From positions 1-44,055 of the IMG/VR virus record IMGVR_UViG_2778261667_000008: 44,055 nucleotides of DNA. One strand, 5' to 3'. The notes below the pieces were generated by a model. That model saw only the letters and a list, made by a program, of their open reading frames with translations. It ran no database searches and was not told the origin of the DNA. The translations under genes and the position numbers were made by a program. Every line of letters starts with the position of its first letter. Within the stretch, counting starts at the first letter, position 1. Origin of the DNA: a virus (Duplodnaviria > Heunggongvirae > Uroviricota > Caudoviricetes). This document shows, piece after piece, positions 1,207 through 44,055 of the stretch.

Positions 1207-1854
1207 TCATCGACCAATCACCACAACCTGACCACCATCCCCTTCGTCTGCCGTGCTGATCTCCTGAGATACCACGCGTGACCCCACGCGCATTTCACCG
1301 TACAGAACGGGCAGAACATTCCCCTGGGCAACCATGTTATCCAGTGAGGAGAAATACGTGTTCTGTTTGCCGTTATCCGTTGTCTGTGTGCGGGGAGTTC
1401 TGGCTTTCGGTGCCAGCATCTGCGCCACACCGCCCAGGATCATACTGGCCCCTACCGCATACATACCCGATACAGCCGCGACACCCAGCCAGCCCACAGG
1501 GTTCCACCATGCCACCGCAATCAGCGCAGCCCCCAGCACTGCCTGAAAAACACCGCCACTTTTGGCACCCGCCAGACGCGGTACGATGTGGATCACGGCA
1601 CCATTTGCCAGCGGCTCATTAAGACGGGCAGATAATTCGTTTTCGCCTGCATCACGCCCGGCAATGCGCACCTGATACCAGCCCTCATTCAGTTTCTGAC
1701 GAAACGCCGGGAGCTGCGTGGCCAGCGCCCGGATAGCTTCGGCTCCCGTTTTCACACGAAGGTCGATGCGGTGGCCAAATCGTTGCAAATCCCCGTAAAG
1801 GCAGATGCGTGCCATGCCCGGTGACGCCAGAGGGAGTGTGTGCGTCGCTGCCAT
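1207..1854 (-). CDS. I: Tail assembly protein I-like
   Basis: 215 aa; Gly/Ala-rich hydrophobic middle and C-terminus ...GEMRVGSRVVSQEISTADEGDGGQVVVIGR as in lambda gpI; sits between K and J as in lambda. Confidence 0.8.
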   Translation of the reverse strand: MAATHTLPLASPGMARICLYGDLQRFGHRIDLRVKTGAEAIRALATQLPAFRQKLNEGWYQVRIAGRDAGENELSARLNEPLANGAVIHIVPRLAGAKSGGVFQAVLGAALIAVAWWNPVGWLGVAAVSGMYAVGASMILGGVAQMLAPKARTPRTQTTDNGKQNTYFSSLDNMVAQGNVLPVLYGEMRVGSRVVSQEISTADEGDGGQVVVIGR

Positions 1855-2495
1855 TTGTCGGTATACCTCTCTCGTTTGCTCAGTTGTTCAGGAATATGGT
1901 GCAGCAGCTCGCCGTCGCCGCAGTAAATGGCGGCATGATTCGGCACCGATGAACCAAAGCAGCACAGCAGCACATCGCCCGGCTGCGCCTCTGTCAGTGC
2001 GGCACGGTAAAAACCAGTCGCCTCCATATTGTCAAGATAGAGATTCTGGCCGTTACGCCACCAGTCATCCCCGCGATGAAAATCCGGCATCTCAATTCCC
2101 GCCAGATGGTAAGCGTCCCGGAACAGCGTGTAACAGTCCGTCACCCCGTGCTCAAAGCGCCGCCCGGTGAGATGCGGCACACAGCGGAACTTATGAATCG
2201 CCCCGCGGCAGACCAGCCACCACGGCAAATCACTCTGCACCTGCAGCCGCCGGTCGGCCTCACTCAGCCAGGGCAGACCACCGGGGTGGCTGTGGACCAG
2301 CGCCACAATCTCACCCTGCATCTCTGCCTGCAGCCAGTCCTCCGGAGCCATCCGGAAATACTCCTCCGGCTCACCGGAAATATTCACGCAGGGAAAATAT
2401 CTTTCCCCCTCCGGCGTTCTCACCACGAAGCCGCACGACTCCGCTGGCGCACATCGCCGGGCGTGCGCCAGAATCGCTGATTCTGTCTCTGTCAT
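1752..2495 (-). CDS. K: Tail assembly protein K-like (JAB/MPN + NlpC/P60-type)
   Basis: 247 aa, ATG at 2495..2493; HSHP motif and Cys/His region typical of lambda gpK; 3' end overlaps the start of I. Confidence 0.8.
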   Translation of the reverse strand: MTETESAILAHARRCAPAESCGFVVRTPEGERYFPCVNISGEPEEYFRMAPEDWLQAEMQGEIVALVHSHPGGLPWLSEADRRLQVQSDLPWWLVCRGAIHKFRCVPHLTGRRFEHGVTDCYTLFRDAYHLAGIEMPDFHRGDDWWRNGQNLYLDNMEATGFYRAALTEAQPGDVLLCCFGSSVPNHAAIYCGDGELLHHIPEQLSKRERYTDKWQRRTHSLWRHRAWHASAFTGICNDLATASTFV

Positions 2496-6763: not shown

Positions 6764-6782
6764 TTATTAAAACTCCTGACAA

Positions 6783-6809
6783 CAAAAAACCCACCGAAGT
6801 GGGTTTCAG
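6783..6809 (-). terminator. Intrinsic terminator-like hairpin between GT chaperone genes and tape measure gene
   Basis: Minus-strand sequence AACCCAC-TTCG-GTGGGTT followed by TTTTGTTG. Confidence 0.45.
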
Positions 6810-6926
6810 GCGACATAATAGTAGATATAGCGATTACGAGGTCACGCAATGCTTTTCTCCAGGAGCATCATCGATTTAATTAAAGACACCATCACATCTC
6901 TGTAACAGAGTGTACGTAATTAACAA

Positions 6927-7247
6927 CTACACACACTGCTCCTGAAAATACTGGTCATCCAGTGCAAAGATCACTGCTTCAAATTCATCGCGCTCAATCA
7001 ATACCGGATGAGTGGCTAAATATTCATTTATCTCTGTCAGAGATAAAGGCAAAGGCACCCCAGTCATTCCAGCATAACGTCGGGCACGGGATATTACCGA
7101 ATAGGCGTACAACAATTCCTTAAGCACCGGGTCTATTTCTGGTTCCGGTATCGGTGGCAACCTGAGTTTTTCTCGCTTCCATCTTGCCTTTTCCCCCCTT
7201 TCTCCCCCGAACTCCGATAACCACCGTTGGGCGGCTATGGCTTTTTT
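6927..7247 (-). CDS. C-terminal extension of tail assembly chaperone (GT-type product reached by -1 frameshift)
   Basis: The -1 frame is open from the slippery heptamer at 7247..7241 through the 77-aa ORF ending at 6927 (hand translation KKAIAAQRWLSEFGGERGEKARWKREKLR then LPPIPEPEID...). Confidence 0.6.
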   Translation of the reverse strand, partial: KKAIAAQRWLSEFGGERGEKARWKREKLRLPPIPEPEIDPVLKELLYAYSVISRARRYAGMTGVPLPLSLTEINEYLATHPVLIERDEFEAVIFALDDQYFQEQCV

Positions 7248-7696
7248 ATCGTATCCTGCTTCTGCTGCTCTTTACCCTGGGCGATGCTGGCTGCTTCTGC
7301 AAGGATCTGCCAGTACAACTCTGGATTCTGCCTAAGCAGCGCGATCCCTCGTTCTGGCGTATATTCCAGTGCAACCTCAACACCATTAACCAGTTCACCA
7401 ACCCCTTTCCAGTCTTTCAGCAGATAACGAGCGGCATTATCAATGAGTAAATCATCAACAGAATCCACCTCGGAAACCTTTGAAATATCAAACTCCTTCG
7501 TTCCGACGTGCAAACTGGCATCCATTTTCTCAATGTGGCGACGGATTAATGCATTACGGGAGCGATACTGATCGTTATCGCTGCTTGCCACCAACAGTTT
7601 TAACCCGTCTACAGGTTTTAAGTCCTTCATTGGCGTAAACCAGCGTTCTCCACCGATGATAATTTTCTGATTAAGAATAAACATCCATAACCTCAT
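7235..7696 (-). CDS. Tail assembly chaperone (G-like)
   Basis: 153 aa, acidic, between major tail protein and tape measure genes; ends at the slippery site. Confidence 0.65.
   Translation of the reverse strand: MRLWMFILNQKIIIGGERWFTPMKDLKPVDGLKLLVASSDNDQYRSRNALIRRHIEKMDASLHVGTKEFDISKVSEVDSVDDLLIDNAARYLLKDWKGVGELVNGVEVALEYTPERGIALLRQNPELYWQILAEAASIAQGKEQQKQDTIKKP
7241..7247 (-). promoter_or_regulatory. Programmed -1 ribosomal frameshift slippery heptamer A AAA AAG
   Basis: Minus-strand AAAAAAG located 2 codons before the stop of the 153-aa chaperone ORF; zero frame reads ATA AAA AAG CCA TAG. Confidence 0.6.
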
Positions 7697-7744: not shown

Positions 7745-8707
7745 TCAACTAATCGCCTCAGCACTGGCTTTTGCGATCACGGCAGCCGGAGAGTTTTTTT
7801 TTCTGGTTATCGTAGGTGCTTCATCTGCTGCGGTAATGCTCAATTGAACCTGGATAATGTCGGTATTACCCCCATCAGGCCATTCACCTGACACCTGAAC
7901 CTTCGGGAAACTGAAAGTGTATGCCCCCTCTCCATTCGAAAGCGTGAAGCTGAACGGAACTGTTTCTCCAGTCAGTGTTTTACTCCAGATTTCCCATGCA
8001 GCTTTAGACCATGAAAGCGTCACCGTACCGGACGGTGTAAAAGTAGTCGGAATATTTGCTCCTGCATAAGGCGAGCCAGTCCCGATACAACGCTGTGTCT
8101 GGAGTTTGTTATCGAACTGAATATCAAAACTGTCGATACAAAAACCGTTACCTCCGGCAACACCATTCAGGCTTACTGCTGAAACCTCCTTAAACGAATA
8201 ACGTAGCTTTCCTGCACTATCCACAGGTTCGCCTTTGATAAAATTCGTATCATCGGCCTTTGATTCCCAGTCCAGTCCGGCAAAGGTTACGGTCGCTGTA
8301 ATATCGCCGTCGTTAGGGATCTGCATTTTCCATGAGCCAACCTGCGCTCCTCTGACGACAGAGGCAATTCCGACATCGGACGCATAGGTCGCCAGAGAAA
8401 ATGTTATTCGCTCATTCCCCATTGTCAGAGAATCGCCTGACCATTCCGCGCCGAAACAGGATGCAAGAAAATCATCATGTTGACCCCAGCGAAATTTGGT
8501 ACCAACATCACCGCCGACATCCACAGTGCCAGGCGTCGCCCCCTGAGCCATCCGGGAGCCACCAATCTCATTATTTTCGCCTTTATTCTGGGTGGGTTTT
8601 ACTCCCCAGCTTGTGCGTTTTAATAAACTCCAGTCACCACTTGCTGGCGTAGTGCCTGCAACCGTCTCCCGGATAAATGCCGAGATAACCTTTGCACCTG
8701 AACTCAC
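7745..8707 (-). CDS. Major tail protein (tube), with C-terminal Ig-like extension
   Basis: 320 aa, Gly/Ser/Thr-rich beta-type composition; position upstream of the G/GT chaperones. Confidence 0.6.
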   Translation of the reverse strand: MSSGAKVISAFIRETVAGTTPASGDWSLLKRTSWGVKPTQNKGENNEIGGSRMAQGATPGTVDVGGDVGTKFRWGQHDDFLASCFGAEWSGDSLTMGNERITFSLATYASDVGIASVVRGAQVGSWKMQIPNDGDITATVTFAGLDWESKADDTNFIKGEPVDSAGKLRYSFKEVSAVSLNGVAGGNGFCIDSFDIQFDNKLQTQRCIGTGSPYAGANIPTTFTPSGTVTLSWSKAAWEIWSKTLTGETVPFSFTLSNGEGAYTFSFPKVQVSGEWPDGGNTDIIQVQLSITAADEAPTITRKKNSPAAVIAKASAEAIS

Positions 8708-8733: not shown

Positions 8734-9126
8734 CTAGAGCGCGCGATATGGAATTTGAAGATTAAGCTGGAACCAGCCATTCTTTTCGCCAACGGCTATT
8801 GAGGAAACAGCCTGGTAACTGAGACGATCGTCATCCTGAAACTCAAACAGTCCCCGCAATTTATCGGCTGTCTCAGTAATGAGTTTTGAACCAGAACCTG
8901 CGGGGACAAATAACTGAATAATGATTATCCCCGTGCGATAAACAATCGGCCCCGCGCCAATTTCATTAACTCCAGCCTGCCCGGGAATATTACTTAACCG
9001 CGCCCAGATTAACTTACCGGAAGGATCGAACGTTGGCGCGTTCGGATACAATACGTCTTTTCCATCAATAATCGTCTGTGCCGTCATTCTGGAAATAACC
9101 GTATTTCTGATTTCAGTAAATGTCAT
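8734..9126 (-). CDS. Tail terminator / minor tail protein (U-like position)
   Basis: 130 aa, position between head-tail joining genes and major tail gene. Confidence 0.45.
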   Translation of the reverse strand: MTFTEIRNTVISRMTAQTIIDGKDVLYPNAPTFDPSGKLIWARLSNIPGQAGVNEIGAGPIVYRTGIIIIQLFVPAGSGSKLITETADKLRGLFEFQDDDRLSYQAVSSIAVGEKNGWFQLNLQIPYRAL

Positions 9127-27168: not shown

Positions 27169-27324
27169 TTACTCCTCAGGTTCGTAAGCTGTGAAGACAG
27201 CGACCTCCGTCTGACCGGTTCGGATTCGCACCTCGCAGAGGTCTTTCCTCGTTACCAGTGCCGTCACTATGACGGTTAAACAGATGACAATCAGTGCGAC
27301 TAACATCGCCTTTTGCTGCTTCAT
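27169..27324 (-). CDS. hokD: Hok/Gef-family type I toxin
   Basis: MKQQKAMLVALIVICLTVIVTALVTRKDLCEVRIRTGQTEVAVFTAYEPEE is near-identical to my recollection of HokD (RelF); AAGGAGAAG SD; the track ORF extends 19 codons upstream in frame; perfect 9-bp stem-loop (27138..27159) in the 3' region. Confidence 0.8.
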   Translation of the reverse strand: MKQQKAMLVALIVICLTVIVTALVTRKDLCEVRIRTGQTEVAVFTAYEPEE

Positions 27325-27955
27325 AGCCTGCTTCTCCTTGCCTTCCGGCGCGTAAGAGGCTAACCTACATGTGCAAAGCATGAAATTGGCCTCAGATTAA
27401 TGTTAAGCGTCTTGCCGGACGCGTAATGTTATCTGGGGCTTTTCTCTATCTGCCGTTGGTGTTCATGCCCGAGGCAGATAGCCTCAAGCACCCGCAGCAA
27501 TTCTACTTAACCCCCGTCACCTCGCCAATATAAAATCAATCAGAAAGGCGATCCATAAGAACAACAGCAAGACAATAAATTGCCATTACAGCCGCAATAG
27601 CTAGCGCACATTTGAGAACCAGCACGACAACCTCCTGTATTGGGCGTACACCAGTCCTGATAAATATGAGGATGTCTCGTCAGTGATTCAATGCAACTAT
27701 TGGGTATAGTTTCTGTGATTTTGTTCTGTAGAAATGGAACACAACAACCAGTCACCATCCGCTCTTCTTTAAATGCGCTAAGTCAGACACAAGCCAACAT
27801 TTTAGTTGGCTTTGAGCGTTCTGGAGATGCGACATTGCTAACAGCCTTTTGAATGAACTAATCGGGGGCTAGTCATAACGGGCATAGCAGTCTCCAAGTA
27901 AGCAAGACTTTGCCATACAGAATGGAGCTAAGTTATTCATCAAATCTCCTTAAAT

Positions 27956-37907: not shown

Positions 37908-40900
37908 ATGAGCACAAAACCACTCTTCCTGTTACGGAAAGCGAAAAAATCATCCGGTGAACCTGACGTCGTCCTGTGGGCAAGCAACGATTTTGAATCG
38001 ACCTGTGCCACTCTGGACTACCTGATCGTTAAGTCAGGTAAAAAACTGAGCAGCTATTTTAAAGCTGTTGCCACGAATTTTCCTGTCGTTAATGACCTGC
38101 CCGCTGAAGGTGAGATCGATTTTACCTGGAGTGAACGCTATCAACTCAGCAAAGACTCCATGACATGGGAACTAAAACCGGGAGCAGCACCAGACAACGC
38201 TCACTATCAAGGCAATACCAACGTCAACGGCGAAGACATGACTGAGATTGAGGAGAATATGCTACTCCCAATTTCTGGCCAGGAACTGCCCATTCGTTGG
38301 CTTGCTCAACACGGCAGCGAAAAACCGGTAACGCACGTTTCACGCGACGGACTCCAGGCATTACACATTGCTCGGGCTGAAGAACTACCGGCTGTTACTG
38401 CCCTGGCTGTTTCCCACAAAACCAGCCTGCTCGACCCGCTGGAAATTCGCGAACTCCACAAACTGGTTCGTGACACTGACAAAGTTTTCCCTAATCCTGG
38501 TAATTCAAACCTGGGACTGATAACTGCTTTTTTCGAAGCATACCTGAACGCTGACTACACCGATCGAGGACTGCTGACAAAAGAGTGGATGAAGGGTAAT
38601 CGTGTTTCACACATCACTCGCACGGCTTCCGGTGCTAATGCTGGCGGCGGAAACCTCACCGATCGCGGCGAAGGTTTCGTACACGATCTGACGTCACTGG
38701 CGCGCGACGTAGCCACTGGCGTACTGGCCCGTTCAATGGATCTGGACATCTATAACCTTCATCCGGCACACGCTAAACGCATTGAGGAAATTATCGCTGA
38801 AAATAAACCGCCCTTTTCTGTTTTCCGCGACAAATTCATCACCATGCCTGGCGGGCTGGATTATTCCCGCGCCATCGTGGTTGCGTCCGTAAAAGAAGCA
38901 CCAATTGGGATCGAGGTCATCCCCGCGCACGTCACTGAATATCTGAACAAAGTACTGACTGAAACCGATCATGCCAACCCTGATCCGGAAATCGTGGATA
39001 TTGCCTGCGGTCGCTCCTCTGCCCCGATGCCGCAGCGAGTAACAGAAGAAGGAAAACAGGATGATGAAGAAAAACCGCAACCATCTGGAACAACGGCAGT
39101 TGAACAGGGAGAGGCTGAAACAATGGAACCGGACGCAACTGAACATCATCAGGACACGCAGCCGCTGGATGCTCAGTCACAGGTAAATTCTGTTGATGCG
39201 AAATATCAGGAACTGCGGGCAGAACTCCATGAAGCCCGGAAAAACATTCCATCAAAAAATCCTGTCGATGCCGATAAATTGCTTGCTGCATCACGTGGTG
39301 AATTTGTTGACGGAATTAGCGACCCGAACGATCCGAAATGGGTAAAGGGGATCCAGACTCGCGACTCTGTGTACCAGAACCAGCCAGAAACGAAACAAAA
39401 CACGCCAGAAACTGTAAAAACCAGCCCGGATGTGAAACAACCTGAGCCAGTAGTGCAACAGAAACCGGAAATAGTCTGCAATGCCTGCGGTCAGACTGGC
39501 GGGGATAACTGCCCTGACTGTGGTGCGGTGATGGGCGACGCAACATACCAGGAAACATTCGATGAAGAGAATCAGGTTGAAGCTAAGGAAAATGATCCGG
39601 AGGAAATGGAAGGCGCTGAACATCCGCACAAGGAGAACGCTAGCAACCATCCGCATCACGATTGCAGTGATGAAACTGGTGAAGCGTCAGCTCATGTAGC
39701 AACTGAAATCATGTGGCCGTCATATTTCGAGCCTGGCCGCTATGAAAACCTCCCGAACGAGGTTTATCACTCCGCCAACGGAATAAGCAGCACAATGCTG
39801 AAGGATGCCCGCATCAGTCTGATGTATTACCACGGGCGGCACATTGCCGGAACTATTCCGAACGAGGAAAGTGATGCATTGCTGCGTGGGCGGATCATTC
39901 ACAGCTATGTTCTGGAAACGGATAAATTCGCTGATGAATATGCCATTCCGGTACCGGTTCCTGAATATGTGGTTACTACTTCTAACGAACTGATCACCAT
40001 CATTAAAAAACACAATGCCAGTCTGCCATCACTGATGACACCAGAGCAGATGAAAGAGTGGATCGAAAGCTACAACAGCACTCTTATACAGCCACTGTCG
40101 GTAAGCGCTGGGGCCGAAGAAACAGGCATCCTTTACGGTTCGCTTCCGGAGGAATTTCGGCGTATTCCTGAGGGGGAAAAACACACAGCATCAGCAATGA
40201 AAGCCTGTATTAAAGAATACAACGCAAGCCTCCCTCCTCTGCTGAAAACCAGTGGAACACGGGAGCAGCTTCTGGAGCAAATTGAAACTGTAGATCCAGA
40301 ACTGGCAAAAAAAGAACGTGCTAAATCGTTGCCTTACAACATCAGTGGCACAAAAGAGCAATTAACCGAAATCGCCCGGAAAATTCGCCCGGAACTGGTA
40401 ACACTGGAGGACTGGCAAAAACGCCAGCAAGAAGAAAATGCAGGAAAAACGTTTATCAGTCCAGATATGTATGAACAGGCAAAAAATATTCACGCGGCAC
40501 TGCAAAACAATACTGACGCGGCAAGACTACTCAACCACCCGGATCGCAAATCTGAAATCAGCTATTTCGGGTTTGATGAAGAAACCGGGCTGGAAATCAG
40601 AGTCCGCCCTGATATCGAAATCCGACTGCCATACGAAAGCATCTGCGCCGACGTGAAATCAGTAAGCCTCGGTTATGTGCGGCAAGAACGACTAAAAGAT
40701 CGCTTACACCGTGAAATTATTGAACGTGATTATCACCTGAGCGCCGCAATGTACTGCGATGTGGCAAACCTGGACAAATTTTTCTGGATCTTCGTCAACA
40801 AAGATGCTGGCTATCACTGGGTGGCTGTCGTGGAAGCCTCGCAGGAACTCCTGGAACTTGGTCGACAGGAATATCGCCGGACGCTACGACAGATAAACGA

Positions 40901-41000
40901 AGCGCTGGAGACAAACAACTGGCCAGCACCGATTACCGAAAGTTATACCGACGAATTAAACGACTTTGATCTTCGTCGTCTTGAAGCACTGAGCATCTGA
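37908..41000 (+). CDS. recE: Exodeoxyribonuclease VIII (RecE), full-length 1030-aa form
   Basis: N-terminus [46 protein letters not shown]... matches my recollection of RecE; internal Cys cluster [16 protein letters not shown]; nuclease-type C-terminal third. Confidence 0.85.
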
Positions 41001-41011
41001 GGAAGGACACA

Positions 41012-42064
41012 ATGAACGAATTAACTCAACAAGAAAATATTAACTCTAATGTTGCGGTTTTCAGCCCTCAGTCTCTGGCTGCAATTCAGACGTTTTCTCA
41101 GGTAATGGCTTCCGGCATGGCTACTGTACCGGAACACCTCCGAGGAAATCCATCAGACTGCATGGCCATCACCATGCAGGCGATGCAGTGGCAAATGAAC
41201 CCTTACGCAGTAGCTCAGAAAACTTTCGTTGTGAATGGTGTGCTCGGATATGAAGCGCAACTGGTTAATGCCGTAATCAGTACTCGTGGGCCGCTAACCG
41301 GGCGTATTGAATATGACTGGTTCGGGCCGTGGGAAAAAATTATCGGGAAATTTGAAATCAGGAAGAACGACAAAGGGAAAGAATATCGTGTACCTGGCTG
41401 GAAGCTGGCCGATGAAAACGGGATCGGAGTTCGCGTCCAGGCAACACTACGCGGAGAGAGCAAACCACGCGTACTGGAGTTACTTCTGGCGCAGGCCAGA
41501 ACACGTAACTCAACGTTATGGGCCGATGATCCTCGTCAGCAGCTTGCCTATCTGGCACTGAAACGCTGGGCGCGCCTTTATTGCCCTGAAGTGATTCTTG
41601 GAGTGTACACCCGGGACGAACTGGACGAACCACAGGAAAAAATCATTAATCCGGTTCAGGAACATAAAAACACATCCGCCTGCCGTGCGGAACGTGAAAC
41701 AACAATTATTGAGCAGGATGCAGGGGAAAACTGGATCAGTGCTTTCCGTGAACGTATTGAGCAGGCACAAAGCACCGGAGAAACAACAGCACTTCGGCAG
41801 GAAGTGGAAGAGCATAAAAATACACTTGGCGTTCTCTATACGGAACTTAAAGGAAAAGTGGTTCAGCGTCATCACCGTCTCAATGCTATTGCCCGTATTG
41901 AGAAGATGATAAATGAGCTGACTTCATCAGGTGATCCGGAAGCAGAACAAAAATTTACTGCTCTGGAAAATGCGTTGAATGCTGCACGACCACATCTGGG
42001 AGAATTATATGAGGCGTATAAAACGACACTGACAGATATGAAACCAGAATATATCGGCTCCTGA
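41012..42064 (+). CDS. Single-strand annealing protein partner of RecE (Red-beta-like rather than RecT-like by my reading)
   Basis: 350 aa immediately after recE; the N-terminal half (NPYAVAQKTFVVNGVLGYEAQ..., ...LWADDPRQQLAYLALKRWARLYCPEV) loosely resembles lambda Bet and does not resemble my recollection of K-12 RecT. Confidence 0.5.
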   Translation: MNELTQQENINSNVAVFSPQSLAAIQTFSQVMASGMATVPEHLRGNPSDCMAITMQAMQWQMNPYAVAQKTFVVNGVLGYEAQLVNAVISTRGPLTGRIEYDWFGPWEKIIGKFEIRKNDKGKEYRVPGWKLADENGIGVRVQATLRGESKPRVLELLLAQARTRNSTLWADDPRQQLAYLALKRWARLYCPEVILGVYTRDELDEPQEKIINPVQEHKNTSACRAERETTIIEQDAGENWISAFRERIEQAQSTGETTALRQEVEEHKNTLGVLYTELKGKVVQRHHRLNAIARIEKMINELTSSGDPEAEQKFTALENALNAARPHLGELYEAYKTTLTDMKPEYIGS

Positions 42065-42127
42065 TATTTACTATGGCGGCGTAGCCTCACCGCCATAACA
42101 AAACTTTATTTTATGAGAGAAAATACA

Positions 42128-42322
42128 ATGCGGTATGAAAAAGTCAAACCATGTCCATTTTGTGGTTGTTCATCAGTAACGGTGAAAGCCATCTCAGGAT
42201 ATTACCGAGCGAAGTGTAACGGATGCGAATCCCGAACCGGTTATGGTGGAAGTGAAAAAGAAGCACTCGAAAGATGGAATAAACGAACCACTGGAAATAA
42301 TAATGGAGGTGTTCATGTATAA
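42128..42322 (+). CDS. ralR: Restriction alleviation protein RalR (Lar)
   Basis: 64 aa from the ATG at 42128, MRYEKVKPCPFCGC..., zinc-ribbon Cys pairs; matches my recollection of RalR. Confidence 0.8.
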   Translation: MRYEKVKPCPFCGCSSVTVKAISGYYRAKCNGCESRTGYGGSEKEALERWNKRTTGNNNGGVHV

Positions 42323-42503
42323 AATTACCGCCACTATTGAAAAGGAAGGTGGCACTCCTACTAACTGGACAAGATATTCAAAATCTAAACTAACGAAATC
42401 AGAATGCGAAAAAATGCTCTCAGGTAAAAAAGAAGCAGGCGTTTCCAGAGAGCAGAAAGTAAAACTGATAAATTTTAATTGCGAGAAACTTCAGTCCTCG
42501 TGA
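42315..42503 (+). CDS. ydaC: Small protein YdaC-like
   Basis: Reading frame MYKITATIEKEGGTPTNW... with GGAGGT just upstream; overlaps the ralR 3' end; an alternative ATG lies at 42303. Name by synteny. Confidence 0.45.
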   Translation: MYKITATIEKEGGTPTNWTRYSKSKLTKSECEKMLSGKKEAGVSREQKVKLINFNCEKLQSS

Positions 42504-42602
42504 ATTGCACTGTATTCAAATTAAAACTTCATAGCTGATTATTAATAATCAACATCGGGCGTCAATTTCAGTCTAACATTGGCGCCTGCCAGAGGTGATG
42601 CG

Positions 42603-42818
42603 ATGGCACAAGTAATCTTTAATGAAGAGTGGATGGTTGAATACGGCCTAATGCTTCGCACTGGTCTGGGGGCCAGACAAATTGAAGCATACCGCCAGAA
42701 CTGTTGGGTGGAGGGCTTCCACTTCAAACGAGTATCTCCTTTAGGTAAGCCAGACAGCAAACGAGGGATTATCTGGTACAACTATCCAAAGATAAATCAG
42801 TTTATCAAAGACTCATGA
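42603..42818 (+). CDS. xisR: Excisionase
   Basis: 71 aa from the ATG at 42603 ([32 protein letters not shown]...); directly upstream of the integrase (stop and start form TGATATG). Confidence 0.8.
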
Positions 42819-42819
42819 T

Positions 42820-44055
42820 ATGTCTAAATTACCAACAGGTGTCGAGATTAGAGGTAGATACATTCGCATCTGGTTCATGTTTCGAGGAAAACGATGTCGG
42901 GAAACATTAAAAGGCTGGGAGATTACAAACAGTAATATTAAAAAGGCCGGAAATTTAAGAGCGCTGATAGTTCATGAAATAAACTCTGGTGAATTTGAGT
43001 ATTTAAGACGTTTTCCCCAGTCCAGCACTGGGGCAAAAATGGTGACAACGAGAGTCATAAAAACGTTCGGAGAACTTTGTGATATCTGGACAAAAATTAA
43101 AGAGACAGAGTTAACAACAAACACAATGAAGAAAACGAAATCACAATTAAAAACACTCAGAATAATAATTTGTGAAAGTACCCCGATATCACATATTCGT
43201 TATAGCGATATCTTAAACTACCGGAATGAACTGCTGCATGGAGAAACGCTTTACCTGGATAATCCAAGATCCAACAAAAAAGGAAGAACCGTGCGCACAG
43301 TTGATAACTATATCGCCCTGCTCTGTTCGCTGTTGCGTTTTGCGTATCAGTCGGGATTTATATCAACCAAACCATTTGAAGGAGTAAAAAAATTACAGCG
43401 AAACAGAATAAAGCCTGATCCGTTATCTAAAACAGAATTCAATGCATTAATGGAAAGTGAAAAAGGACAGAGCCAGAACTTGTGGAAATTTGCCGTTTAC
43501 TCAGGACTTCGTCACGGGGAACTGGCAGCTCTGGCGTGGGAGGATGTGGATCTCGAAAAGGGAATAGTGAATGTCAGAAGAAACCTGACGATACTTGATA
43601 TGTTCGGTCCCCCAAAAACAAATGCCGGGATCCGGACAGTAACACTACTGCAGCCTGCTCTTGAAGCACTGAAGGAGCAATACAAACTGACCGGGCATCA
43701 TCGCAAAAGCGAAATCACTTTTTATCATCGGGAGTACGGCAGAACCGAAAAGCAAAAACTGCATTTTGTTTTCATGCCCAGAGTGTGTAACGGAAAACAG
43801 AAACCTTATTACTCGGTAAGCAGTTTGGGTGCGAGATGGAATGCAGCAGTAAAACGTGCTGGTATTCGCCGCCGTAATCCGTACCATACGCGGCATACTT
43901 TTGCCTGCTGGCTGTTGACGGCAGGAGCGAACCCGGCGTTTATAGCCAGCCAGATGGGGCATGAAACTGCGCAGATGGTGTATGAAATTTACGGTATGTG
44001 GATTGATGACATGAACGACGAACAGGTAGCCATGTTGAATGCGCGGTTATCGTAG
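42820..44055 (+). CDS. intR: Tyrosine-type site-specific integrase
   Basis: 411 aa; C-terminal catalytic region with R...HTRHTF...Y-type motifs (NPYHTRHTFACWLL...YEIYGMW); stop codon TAG is the last 3 bases of the window. Confidence 0.9.
   Translation: MSKLPTGVEIRGRYIRIWFMFRGKRCRETLKGWEITNSNIKKAGNLRALIVHEINSGEFEYLRRFPQSSTGAKMVTTRVIKTFGELCDIWTKIKETELTTNTMKKTKSQLKTLRIIICESTPISHIRYSDILNYRNELLHGETLYLDNPRSNKKGRTVRTVDNYIALLCSLLRFAYQSGFISTKPFEGVKKLQRNRIKPDPLSKTEFNALMESEKGQSQNLWKFAVYSGLRHGELAALAWEDVDLEKGIVNVRRNLTILDMFGPPKTNAGIRTVTLLQPALEALKEQYKLTGHHRKSEITFYHREYGRTEKQKLHFVFMPRVCNGKQKPYYSVSSLGARWNAAVKRAGIRRRNPYHTRHTFACWLLTAGANPAFIASQMGHETAQMVYEIYGMWIDDMNDEQVAMLNARLS

Follow-up and report, generated by a model that had tools for sequence, protein, structure and literature searches.

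Does the tail assembly chaperone gene of this prophage end at its own stop codon, or is it also read through into a second, overlapping frame as a longer protein? An earlier note on the window (here meaning the whole 44,055-nt stretch of DNA that was analysed) had proposed that the chaperone is joined to a downstream extension by a -1 shift on an A AAA AAG heptamer, in the G/GT arrangement of long-tailed phages. This assignment is supported by synteny, by the phase of the heptamer, by its conservation and by a match of the zero-frame product to PHROG 313, and the locus, which belongs to an intact Rac-type E. coli prophage, can be read with high confidence from comparative sequence evidence as a case of programmed -1 ribosomal frameshifting like that of other phage G/GT pairs. 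The G/GT frameshift as such is already known, and what is added here is another family, the main gain being in annotation. The phenomenon has reportedly been known since the work of Levin, Hendrix and Casjens on phage lambda in 1993, was reportedly shown by Xu, Hendrix and Duda in 2004 to be near-universal in long-tailed phages, and was reportedly pursued further in lambda by the same three authors in 2013 and 2014.

Gene order and the zero-frame chaperone

The features of the locus are collected in Table 1. On the minus strand the tail tube gene is followed by the G/T region and then by the tape measure gene, the position that characterizes G/GT pairs (Xu, Hendrix & Duda 2004). A 163-nt gap containing a terminator-like hairpin separates T from the gene for the tape measure protein, the presumed client of G and GT.

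Table 1. Features of the chaperone locus, in window coordinates
Feature	Coordinates	Strand	Evidence and remarks
Tail tube (major tail) protein gene	7745..8707	-	Pfam Phage_tube_2 (E=1.4e-31); PHROG 290; upstream neighbour
Gene G, tail assembly chaperone, zero frame	7235..7684	-	PHROG 313; 149 aa from the likely start; stop TAG 7237..7235
Slippery heptamer A AAA AAG (X XXY YYZ)	7241..7247	-	Sequence, phase and conservation; proposed tandem -1 tRNA slippage
T segment, -1 frame, 104 codons plus stop TAG 6929..6927	6927..7241	-	Frame map; PHROG 1189
Hairpin directly 3' of the heptamer	7214..7240	-	RNA fold prediction
Tape measure protein gene, 1077 aa	3530..6763	-	Pfam TMP_2 (E=1.2e-81), Tape_meas_lam_C and TMP_4; PHROG 24; downstream neighbour

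The 153-aa open reading frame described previously is present (7696..7235, from an upstream ATG at 7696) and ends ...GAT ACG ATA AAA AAG CCA TAG. The true start of G is likely to be ATG 7684, giving a G of 149 aa and a GT of 252 aa, because a GAGG (7694..7691) lies 6 nt upstream of this codon and homologues start there, with the same MFILNQ that begins the SPF_0923 annotation. The G product matches PHROG 313 'tail assembly chaperone' (E=1.2e-46) and has a precomputed assignment to family PF27119; a Pfam search with G returned no match in a copy of the database lacking PF27119, and an NCBIfam search returned none for G, T or GT.

A first AlphaFold model of G, built from a 15-sequence alignment, was discarded (pLDDT 46), and an AF2 model from a 47-sequence alignment reached a pLDDT of 82.4. 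The profile search for deeper homologues of G covered the best 120 of 297 proteins, and the Pseudomonas and Acinetobacter clade lies outside the structure alignment. Foldseek comparison of the model with BFVD retrieved predicted tail or tape-measure chaperones (E 5e-5 to 1e-2, probability 1.00, TM 0.45-0.59), among them long forms of 231-268 aa. The same model found nothing significant in the PDB (best E 0.86), where sequence searches with the G and T profiles also gave no matches, so that the fold evidence for G consists of predicted structures. As modelled, G has the family and fold of a tail assembly chaperone.

The slip site and the -1 frame

The heptamer is, as had been claimed, placed near the G stop and phased for a -1 slip. 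It is a canonical heptamer, its first A is the third position of a codon, as X XXY YYZ requires, and it ends 3 nt before the stop, with a single sense codon (CCA) between AAG and TAG. The -1 frame, said to be open for some 105 codons to 6927, is indeed open, from 7271 onward, and provides 104 codons after the slip. The resulting GT, complement(join(6927..7241,7241..7684)), is 252 aa long; its junction reads ...QDTIKK followed by AIAAQRWLSEFGGE..., and the peptide spanning it is ...DTIKKAIAAQRWLSE.

The claim that T has neither a start codon nor a Shine-Dalgarno sequence of its own stands in part. The first ATG, GTG or TTG after the -1-frame stop at 7274..7272 is TTG 7160, 27 codons past the slip site, and no well-spaced Shine-Dalgarno precedes this or any other candidate start, but start codons do exist inside the extension (TTG 7160, GTG 7127, TTG 7112, ATG 7067 and GTG 7058), the choice among them varying between gene callers. 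The peptides AIAAQR, WLSEFGGER and EKLRLPPIPEPEIDPVLK are encoded in the -1 frame before TTG 7160. The T segment thus has the character of the T part of G/GT pairs, with no start of its own at its beginning, and the comparisons given below indicate that the -1 frame codes for protein right from the slip site. It matches PHROG 1189 (E=1.7e-36), an 86-position profile that models only the ~75 C-terminal residues of T, and resembles Pfam Phage_TAC_18 over profile positions 12-78 of 79 at 20.3 bits (E=6e-4), below the gathering threshold of 27 bits; Phage_TAC_18 matches at E<0.01 were obtained for 5 of 13 diverse T segments, all below the cutoff.

In the proposed mechanism, most ribosomes would read ATA AAA AAG CCA and terminate at TAG, releasing G of ~149 aa. 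A minor fraction, holding AAA in the P site and AAG in the A site, would undergo a slip of both lysyl-tRNAs back by one base, from A AAA AAG to AAA AAA pairing, and reading would resume in the -1 frame at GCC ATA GCC..., adding 104 residues to give the 252-aa GT. The slippage frequency is probably between <1% and a few per cent. By analogy with lambda, many copies of G together with the G part of GT would coat the tape measure protein, the T domain would recruit the tail tube protein, and both G and GT would be absent from the finished virion; these roles are assigned by analogy because the proteins have no detectable similarity to lambda gpG and gpT and no solved-structure match. We infer both the slippage itself and the assembly roles of G and GT.

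The hairpin directly 3' of the heptamer has the form CCAUAGCCGCC-CAAC-GGUGGUUAU-C-GG and a predicted energy of -14.9 kcal/mol within 50 nt. This GC-rich structure is present only in the E. coli clade, is weakened in one locus (L062), and no conserved stimulatory RNA structure was found in an RNAalifold consensus of 16 relatives (-3.9 kcal/mol, with a negligible covariation term of -0.36). An AGGA or GGAG lies 6 nt upstream of the heptamer in most, not all, relatives and is confounded with conserved Q/K-E/D codons; no well-spaced Shine-Dalgarno-like stimulator was found near the slip site. Conserved stimulators like those of dnaX and insertion-sequence sites (a downstream hairpin or pseudoknot at 5-9 nt and/or an upstream Shine-Dalgarno-like element) were not found in this family. 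The predicted 7214..7240 hairpin may be a clade-specific stimulator, which the frameshift model does not require. In E. coli, A_AA.A_AA.G and G_GG.A_AA.G rank with the -1 motifs of highest efficiency, and the best heptamers yield only ~0.3% shifting in a reporter when no stimulator is present (PMC4066793).

Conservation of the site and its alternative explanations

The locus was compared with 98 related loci (55-99% G identity) that comprise 54 distinct junctions. A T homologue occupies the -1 frame in 97 of the 98 loci, the exception carrying an indel, and in every one of the 54 distinct junctions the heptamer occupies the same codon position, with the G stop 3, 21, 75 or 105 nt downstream. 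Fifty of these junctions carry A AAA AAG, three G GGA AAG and one G GGG AAG, so that the site is canonical in 53 of 54. The change from GTA AAA AAG to GTG GGA AAG, seen in Raoultella, Serratia and Pantoea prophages and in Acinetobacter phage TRS1, is a coordinated one, replacing Lys by Gly while preserving the X XXY YYZ pattern. Relatives ranging from 99% to ~20% identity retain both the site and its phase, and the two-frame arrangement recurs in phages of Citrobacter, Klebsiella, Raoultella, Serratia, Pantoea, Erwinia, Pseudomonas and Acinetobacter. The locus thus shows, with exceptions, the conservation of site, phase and two frames in diverged relatives that marks the G/GT type.

The exceptions have a non-canonical sequence where the heptamer would lie: a Pectobacterium prophage has G GGG AAG, Pseudomonas phages have G GAA AAG and Erwinia phage Gungnir39 has C GCA AAG TAA, P-site re-pairing being imperfect in the latter two. 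In the wider family, therefore, not every member has a perfect heptamer. The Lys of AAG is invariant down to 20% identity, as one of eight invariant columns, and the third base of this codon is also invariant; in the preceding 60 nt, 19 of the 20 third positions of frame 0 are variable. One speculative reading, which we consider doubtful, is that the conserved recoding core comprises only the A-site 'A AAG' Lys codon and not the full heptamer, and that each lineage tunes its GT:G ratio through the surrounding context. In the E. coli clade this context includes, beside the 3' hairpin, a G stop one codon after the slip site. Should the variants indeed set different efficiencies, the family would offer a natural series for the tuning of chaperone stoichiometry.

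The distribution of variable columns follows the two frames. Upstream of the slip site, 13, 10 and 19 variable columns fall on frame-0 codon positions 1, 2 and 3, and in the 69 nt downstream 12, 13 and 21 fall on -1-frame positions 1, 2 and 3. With respect to more distant relatives, ~8-11 of ~16 codon changes are silent when read in the -1 frame, as against 1-3 of ~17 in frame 0. By these substitution patterns, the heptamer is the exact point at which purifying selection passes from the zero frame to the -1 frame. The invariant T residues A4, Q5, W7, G13, E14, G16, K18, W21 and L26 begin 4 codons past the slip and precede the first possible start.

These observations bear directly on the possibility that T is an independent small gene translated from one of its internal starts, beside which the heptamer would be incidental. 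In-frame start codons are available, 43-aa or 61-aa 'hypothetical proteins' are sometimes called in T by PGAP and by phage annotators, and PHROG 1189 covers only the C-terminal ~75 residues, all of which this explanation would accommodate. It would nevertheless leave nine invariant residues upstream of the first possible start, in a stretch that has -1-frame-specific synonymous variation, and would not account for a heptamer whose sequence and phase are conserved and covary. Candidate starts that lack a properly spaced Shine-Dalgarno, differ among gene callers and are not called at all in most records also argue against it, and we regard an independent T gene as extremely unlikely.

Transcriptional slippage, in which RNA polymerase would add one A within the A6 run at 7247..7242 and thereby place G and T in one frame, is suggested by the run itself, and a one-base insertion would lead to the same frame and a near-identical protein, so that the two routes look alike in the sequence by itself. 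For E. coli RNA polymerase to slip efficiently, however, runs of ~9 or more are generally needed. The relatives with G GGA AAG keep the fusion with only three A's, too short a run for the polymerase, while preserving the tRNA re-pairing pattern, and both the X XXY YYZ phase and the AAG codon, neither of them relevant to a polymerase, are conserved. A transcriptional origin of the fusion is therefore highly improbable, and a ribosomal shift remains the preferred reading.

A third explanation is that the two frames reflect chance or decay, a mutation or sequencing error having split a single G-T gene, or the -1 frame being open by accident. Within the window the heptamer alone is not rare (24 copies against 15.4 expected), but an in-frame heptamer followed by at least 60 open -1 codons occurs in only 3 of 61 open reading frames of at least 100 aa. 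The other two candidates of this kind were rejected as shadow open reading frames inside the capsid gene and a recT-like gene. A run of 104 stop-free codons has P ~0.005 from base composition, and only 3.6% of in-frame positions in real genes on the minus strand reach 104 open codons. A rare in-frame fused variant does exist (P0001, 240 aa), produced by an upstream indel, as do loci that carry indels, L049 being an example. Against this stand the recurrence of the same two-frame arrangement in 1,063 complete E. coli genomes, its spread from Citrobacter to Acinetobacter phages, and purifying selection on the -1 frame. Chance is ruled out because the arrangement is conserved across relatives, and the comparative data effectively refute decay as well, leaving this explanation a negligible probability.

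Comparison with known systems and annotation of the locus

The lambda system is among the closest known parallels. In lambda and other tested phages, G and GT are made at a fixed low ratio, are both needed for tail assembly and are absent from virions (PMC5009743, PMC5313236), the lambda G:GT ratio being ~30:1 (PMC5009743). Lambda G/GT likewise has a major tail gene (V) on one side and a tape-measure gene (H) on the other, makes its -1 shift close to the end of G at an X XXY YYZ heptamer that finishes in A AAG, and has a T without its own start and no evident stimulatory structure; its exact heptamer, G GGA AAG, is the one used by distant members of the present family. In contrast, lambda G and T match Pfam Phage_TAC_2 and Phage_tail_T strongly, whereas the present proteins match neither, and hhalign comparison of the two G/T pairs indicated no relationship (probability 0.1% for both). 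The lambda heptamer lies 15 nt before the stop, as opposed to 3 nt here, its T has 144 aa as opposed to 104 aa, and its T and H overlap where a 163-nt gap is found here.

Acinetobacter phage vB_AbaS_TRS1 (NC_031098) carries in TRS1_18/TRS1_19 a pair of the same family at long range. Its T domain shares 39% identity with residues 170-249 of the present GT, and its G aligns at ~20% identity. The tube gene is again followed by G/GT, with further genes after GT and no tape-measure gene located in the stretch compared. TRS1 differs in its host and lineage and in its heptamer, a G GGA AAG that precedes the G stop by 78 nt. The deposited record gives TRS1_19 as a CDS joined from two pieces, and the frameshift is therefore already annotated in this phage. 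For the related Loki pair gp12/gp13, an AAAAAAC adjoining the stop codon has been predicted (PMC5313236).

Within E. coli, gene ECs1801 of the O157 Sakai prophage Sp9 is listed as cluster A_AAA_AAG_25 and marked 'true' (Sharma et al. 2014, PMC4066793). This prophage tail chaperone gene, which lies between major tail and tape measure genes, finishes with an identical A AAA AAG, and its frameshift product is longer than the zero-frame product. Its 124-aa protein, however, is unrelated to G (BLASTP E=11) and belongs to Pfam Phage_TAC_1 (2e-61), which G does not match, and its stop codon immediately follows the heptamer. We accordingly rejected the ECs1801 cluster as the same chaperone, since the family is a different one. 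The E. coli dnaX (tau/gamma) site shares with the present one the A AAA AAG heptamer and the shifty tRNA-Lys mechanism. In dnaX, a Shine-Dalgarno-like element 10 nt upstream and a strong downstream hairpin accompany ~50% shifting to a shorter product. The present locus differs in having an AGGA only 6 nt upstream, a clade-specific hairpin and a shifted product that would be the longer one.

Among 5,426 complete E. coli genomes, 1,063 (~20%) carry the locus. No slippage feature was found in the E. coli records sampled, in which the chaperone is labelled "YdaY" and is N-terminally truncated, at 119 aa, and the 252-aa GT is annotated in none of the E. coli records inspected. T itself is represented in databases only by scattered fragments of 60-138 aa whose starts disagree, or by small "hypothetical proteins", or is missing. 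Among the papers searched, none joined 'ydaY' with 'frameshifting', and ydaY is not listed in the Sharma 2014 supplement (PMC4066793). Once the slippage is recognized, the set of tail-assembly genes in these prophages is complete, and the catalogue of bacterial -1 recoding sites gains a well-supported family with slip-site covariation. The deleted Rac remnant of K-12 appears to have served as the model for the 119-aa YdaY call, and the frameshift reading explains what K-12 ydaY is a remnant of.

Organization of the chaperone locus

Along the minus strand, the tail module comprises, in order, the tail terminator, the tail tube gene, an ORF encoding the tail assembly chaperone (G), a stretch without a long zero-frame ORF, and the tape-measure gene. 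The G ORF encodes 153 aa and its 3′ end reads GAT ACG ATA AAA AAG CCA TAG, in agreement with the earlier note. Frame mapping places the first A of the heptamer A AAA AAG at the third codon position, so that its phase fits tandem -1 re-pairing at an X XXY YYZ slip site, and shows the -1 frame to be open for 104 codons past the slip, against the ~105 previously proposed. Translation of G probably starts at ATG 7684, given a GAGG motif 6 nt upstream and the MFILNQ N-terminus of its homologues and of the SPF_0923 record, which would shorten the 153-aa product to 149 aa and yield a 252-aa fusion (GT) with the -1-frame extension (T). The earlier description of T as lacking a start codon and Shine-Dalgarno sequence of its own is accurate apart from one small correction: the extension does contain start codons, although none has the look of a functional one, and the first ATG/GTG/TTG of the -1 frame, TTG 7160, is not preceded by a well-placed Shine-Dalgarno sequence. 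The main features are listed in the table.

Features of the tail locus and prophage markers in the window
Feature	Position	Strand	Remarks
Tail terminator	9126..8734	-	Upstream of tail tube gene
Tail tube gene	8707..7745	-	Pfam Phage_tube_2
GC-rich stem-loop	7702..7738	-	Between tube stop and G start
Chaperone ORF (G), 153 aa	7696..7235	-	Between tube and tape measure
Open -1 frame, including T	7271 to stop 6929..6927		
Heptamer A AAA AAG	7247..7241	-	
Hairpin after heptamer	7240..7214		
Short zero-frame ORF in T	7190..7128	-	ATG GAA GCG AGA ... TAA
Gap between T and tape measure	6764..6926		163 nt, T stop to tape-measure start
Terminator-like hairpin	6786..6807	-	Mid tail operon
Tape-measure gene, 1077 aa	6763..3530	-	TMP_2, TMP_4, Tape_meas_lam_C
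sok-like antitoxin RNA	27319..27493	-	Rfam, 111 bits
RecE (1030 aa), RecT, integrase	37908..44055		
RalA antitoxin sRNA	42321..42499	-	Rfam, 225 bits

The sequence AAAAAAG is by itself unremarkable in the window (24 copies vs 15.4 ± 3.9 expected), and it is its combination with an open -1 frame that is rare. In-frame X XXY YYZ heptamers (Y = A or T) followed by at least 60 open -1 codons were found in 3 of 61 mechanically called ORFs of at least 100 aa, the other two being shadow ORFs inside the capsid gene and a recT-like gene, which were discarded. An open run of 104 codons has P ≈ 0.005 from base composition; among real genes of the minus strand, just 3.6% of the in-frame positions are followed by one as long.

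The protein encoded by G matches PHROG 313 'tail assembly chaperone' (E = 1.2e-46) and the T extension matches PHROG 1189 (E = 1.7e-36). Similarity of T to Pfam Phage_TAC_18 falls below the cutoff in the window (20.3 bits vs 27 bits), and reaches E < 0.01 in five of 13 diverse T members. AF2 initially gave a poor model for G (pLDDT 46), but with a 47-sequence alignment it reached pLDDT 82.4 and pTM 0.72. When BFVD was searched with the latter by Foldseek, many of the matches were proteins annotated as chaperones of tail assembly or of the tape measure (probability 1.00, E 5e-5 to 1e-2, TM 0.45–0.59), including those of Xanthomonas phage Suba, Acinetobacter phage Loki, Caulobacter CcrColossus, Salmonella 9NA and Escherichia phages Seurat and K1H. 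At 231–268 aa, several of the matched proteins are long forms whose size would fit frameshift fusions; a frameshift prediction was found for Loki only. No match to a solved structure was obtained by fold or sequence.

Three further elements were observed around these genes. The stem-loop preceding G has a 12-bp stem (CCCCCTGTGGTA/TACTACAGGGGG; -22 kcal/mol for the 48-nt spacer) without a T-run after it, and could be an mRNA stabilizer or a processing or attenuation element setting the tube:chaperone expression ratio. The short zero-frame ORF in T (~20 codons) is preceded by a G-rich, Shine-Dalgarno-like stretch, GGGGGGAAAAGG, and is probably meaningless, because that stretch codes for the GGE.GEK motif conserved in T. 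The gap after T holds a strong intrinsic-terminator-like hairpin, AAACCCAC-TTCG-GTGGGTTT followed by TTTTGTTGT, presumably read through under late antitermination. Four related loci (L086, L094, L096 and L098) carry unrelated terminator-like hairpins directly after their T stops, and several relatives have extra small genes inserted there, such as a lipoprotein-like MKK...LLAGC product in L092 and L097; the gap looks like a moron insertion slot.

Conservation of the slip site and coding-frame switch

The comparative set comprised three annotated records and 95 related loci taken from collections of viruses and genomes, with G identities from 99% to 55%. Relative to G, the homologue of T occupies the -1 frame in 97 of these 98 loci, the exception (L049, IMGVR_UViG_2513237361_000013) having lost one G from a GGGGGG run downstream of the heptamer, a 1-nt deletion that leaves most of T outside the -1 frame. 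The 54 distinct junction sequences carry their heptamer at the same codon: A AAA AAG in 50, G GGA AAG in three (Raoultella, Serratia and Pantoea), and the non-canonical G GGG AAG in one, from Pectobacterium odoriferum (L094). The change from GTA AAA AAG to GTG GGA AAG replaces Lys with Gly and also alters the preceding wobble base; this coordinated change preserves X XXY YYZ, an indication that the slippery pattern is itself under selection. No variation is seen at the last base of AAG, whereas 19 of 20 frame-0 third positions vary in the 60 nt upstream. The zero-frame stop of G wanders (3, 21, 75 or 105 nt past the heptamer), and the zero-frame tail after the heptamer shows no conservation.

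Coding constraint changes frame at the heptamer. Upstream, codon positions 1/2/3 of frame 0 hold 13/10/19 variable alignment columns; over the 69 nt past the heptamer, wholly before any -1-frame start codon, the counts are 12/13/21 by -1-frame position and 13/21/12 by frame-0 position. Pairwise comparisons with more distant relatives (22–23 codons) revealed about 8–11 synonymous changes among roughly 16 differing codons in the -1 frame, against 1–3 of roughly 17 in the zero frame; in the +1 frame there were 0–4. Across 13 diverse T segments, the invariant residues A4, Q5, W7, G13, E14, G16, K18, W21 and L26, numbered from the slip, all precede TTG 7160; only ribosomes coming in from G can translate this stretch. 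In keeping with this, T is represented in protein databases by just 27 sporadic 'hypothetical' fragments of 60–138 aa, against hundreds of entries for G, and annotations place its start at differing internal codons or call none.

The conserved site and phase, together with the frame switch, contradict the notion of T as an independent gene. A pseudogene or sequencing artefact is excluded: complete E. coli genomes carry the locus in 1,063 of 5,426 cases, many genera have it too, and T is under purifying selection. Transcriptional slippage on the A6 run would yield the same reading frame. The ribosome is favoured by the G GGA AAG variants and by conservation of the codon phase and of the AAG codon, although polymerase slippage may contribute to a small extent in the A6 clade. 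Production of the fusion by -1 ribosomal frameshifting at the heptamer is very probable. The earlier observation is real and was correctly interpreted as a G/GT-type frameshift, a reading supported by locus anatomy, tail-module position and the 98 loci.

TBLASTN with the predicted GT identified matches in two pieces (two frames) to phages of Pseudomonas and Acinetobacter at ~32% identity. Among annotated relatives, Acinetobacter phage TRS1 (NC_031098) is the nearest; the record for its pair consists of a 'Tail assembly chaperone' and a CDS joined from two pieces. The TRS1 slip site is G GGA AAG, located 78 nt upstream of the G stop, and the -1 product finishes with ...IFALDD..., as does GT in the window. 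The Lys read at AAG is one of just eight invariant columns in a G alignment reaching 20% identity. Imperfect sites occupy the homologous position in Pseudomonas phages phiPSA1 (L103) and Aurca01 (L100), both G GAA AAG, and in Erwinia phage Gungnir39 (L102; C GCA AAG, with TAA directly after). Their occurrence in two clades suggests that the minimal conserved element is a shifty A AAG. These sites and that of L094 may work via A AAG slippage alone, may be helped by an adjacent stop codon, or may be impaired. Permanently fused variants are rare; one, P0001 (240 aa, E. coli), is an in-frame G-T fusion caused by an indel upstream of the slip site; it shows a 12-residue gap and goes into the -1 frame early.

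Stimulatory elements and known frameshift systems

A hairpin starts right after the heptamer in the window (−14.9 kcal/mol within 50 nt), its inner GC-rich stem beginning about 5 nt downstream. Only the E. coli clade has it, and in L062, at 92% identity, it is already weaker; folding 16 diverse junctions into a consensus yields −3.9 kcal/mol and next to no covariation. An AGGA/GGAG motif 6 nt upstream of the heptamer is present in most relatives, not all, and coincides with conserved Q/K-E/D codons. No conserved stimulator, either downstream structure or upstream Shine-Dalgarno-like element, was found among the relatives, as also appears to be the case in lambda. Frameshift efficiency is not predictable from the sequence: the best V_VV.A_AA.G motifs yield ~0.3% without stimulators and much more with them (Sharma et al., PMC4066793), and lambda G and GT are made at about 30:1 (PMC5009743).

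The locus shares mechanism and position with the G/GT genes of long-tailed phages (reviewed in PMC5009743), for which frameshifting has been experimentally confirmed in lambda, P2, L5, TM4, phiC31, HK022 and HK97 (listed in PMC5313236). Membership of the lambda sequence family (G, Phage_TAC_2; T, Phage_tail_T) was rejected (hhalign probability 0.1%), as was that of the family of ECs1801 (Phage_TAC_1) from Sakai prophage Sp9, a published E. coli prophage case with an identical heptamer (BLASTP E = 11 against G).

Prophage context and public annotation

The window encodes an integrase, RecE and RecT as well as the RalA sRNA and a sok-like RNA, and its head and tail modules are complete. RalA belongs to RalR/RalA, a type I toxin-antitoxin system specific to Rac, and these markers identify the window as an intact Rac-type prophage. 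Its chaperone locus is a well-supported but ordinary case of a recoding device that is already known, and in this protein family public annotation largely overlooks the device. RefSeq/PGAP names the chaperone 'ydaY'; in the two intact prophages inspected (L001 and L002, both 1707..2066), it calls a 119-aa protein from an internal TTG, so that 30 codons are lost from the 5′ end of the 149-aa gene. The match in K-12 records (H105-H117) begins only at query position 111, directly adjoining ynaK, which shows that ydaY of the K-12 Rac prophage is what is left of G after loss of its 5′ part; its length appears to have been propagated to intact copies. Neither the records examined in detail nor the entries listed carry a slippage annotation, and no link between ydaY and frameshifting was found in the literature searched. 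A 246-aa database protein (P0038, 'ParB N-terminal domain-containing protein'; 18 contigs) combines a ParB domain (PF02195) with a YdaY-family domain (PF27119), and is probably a chimeric ORF from a Rac deletion joining ynaK to the truncated chaperone gene.
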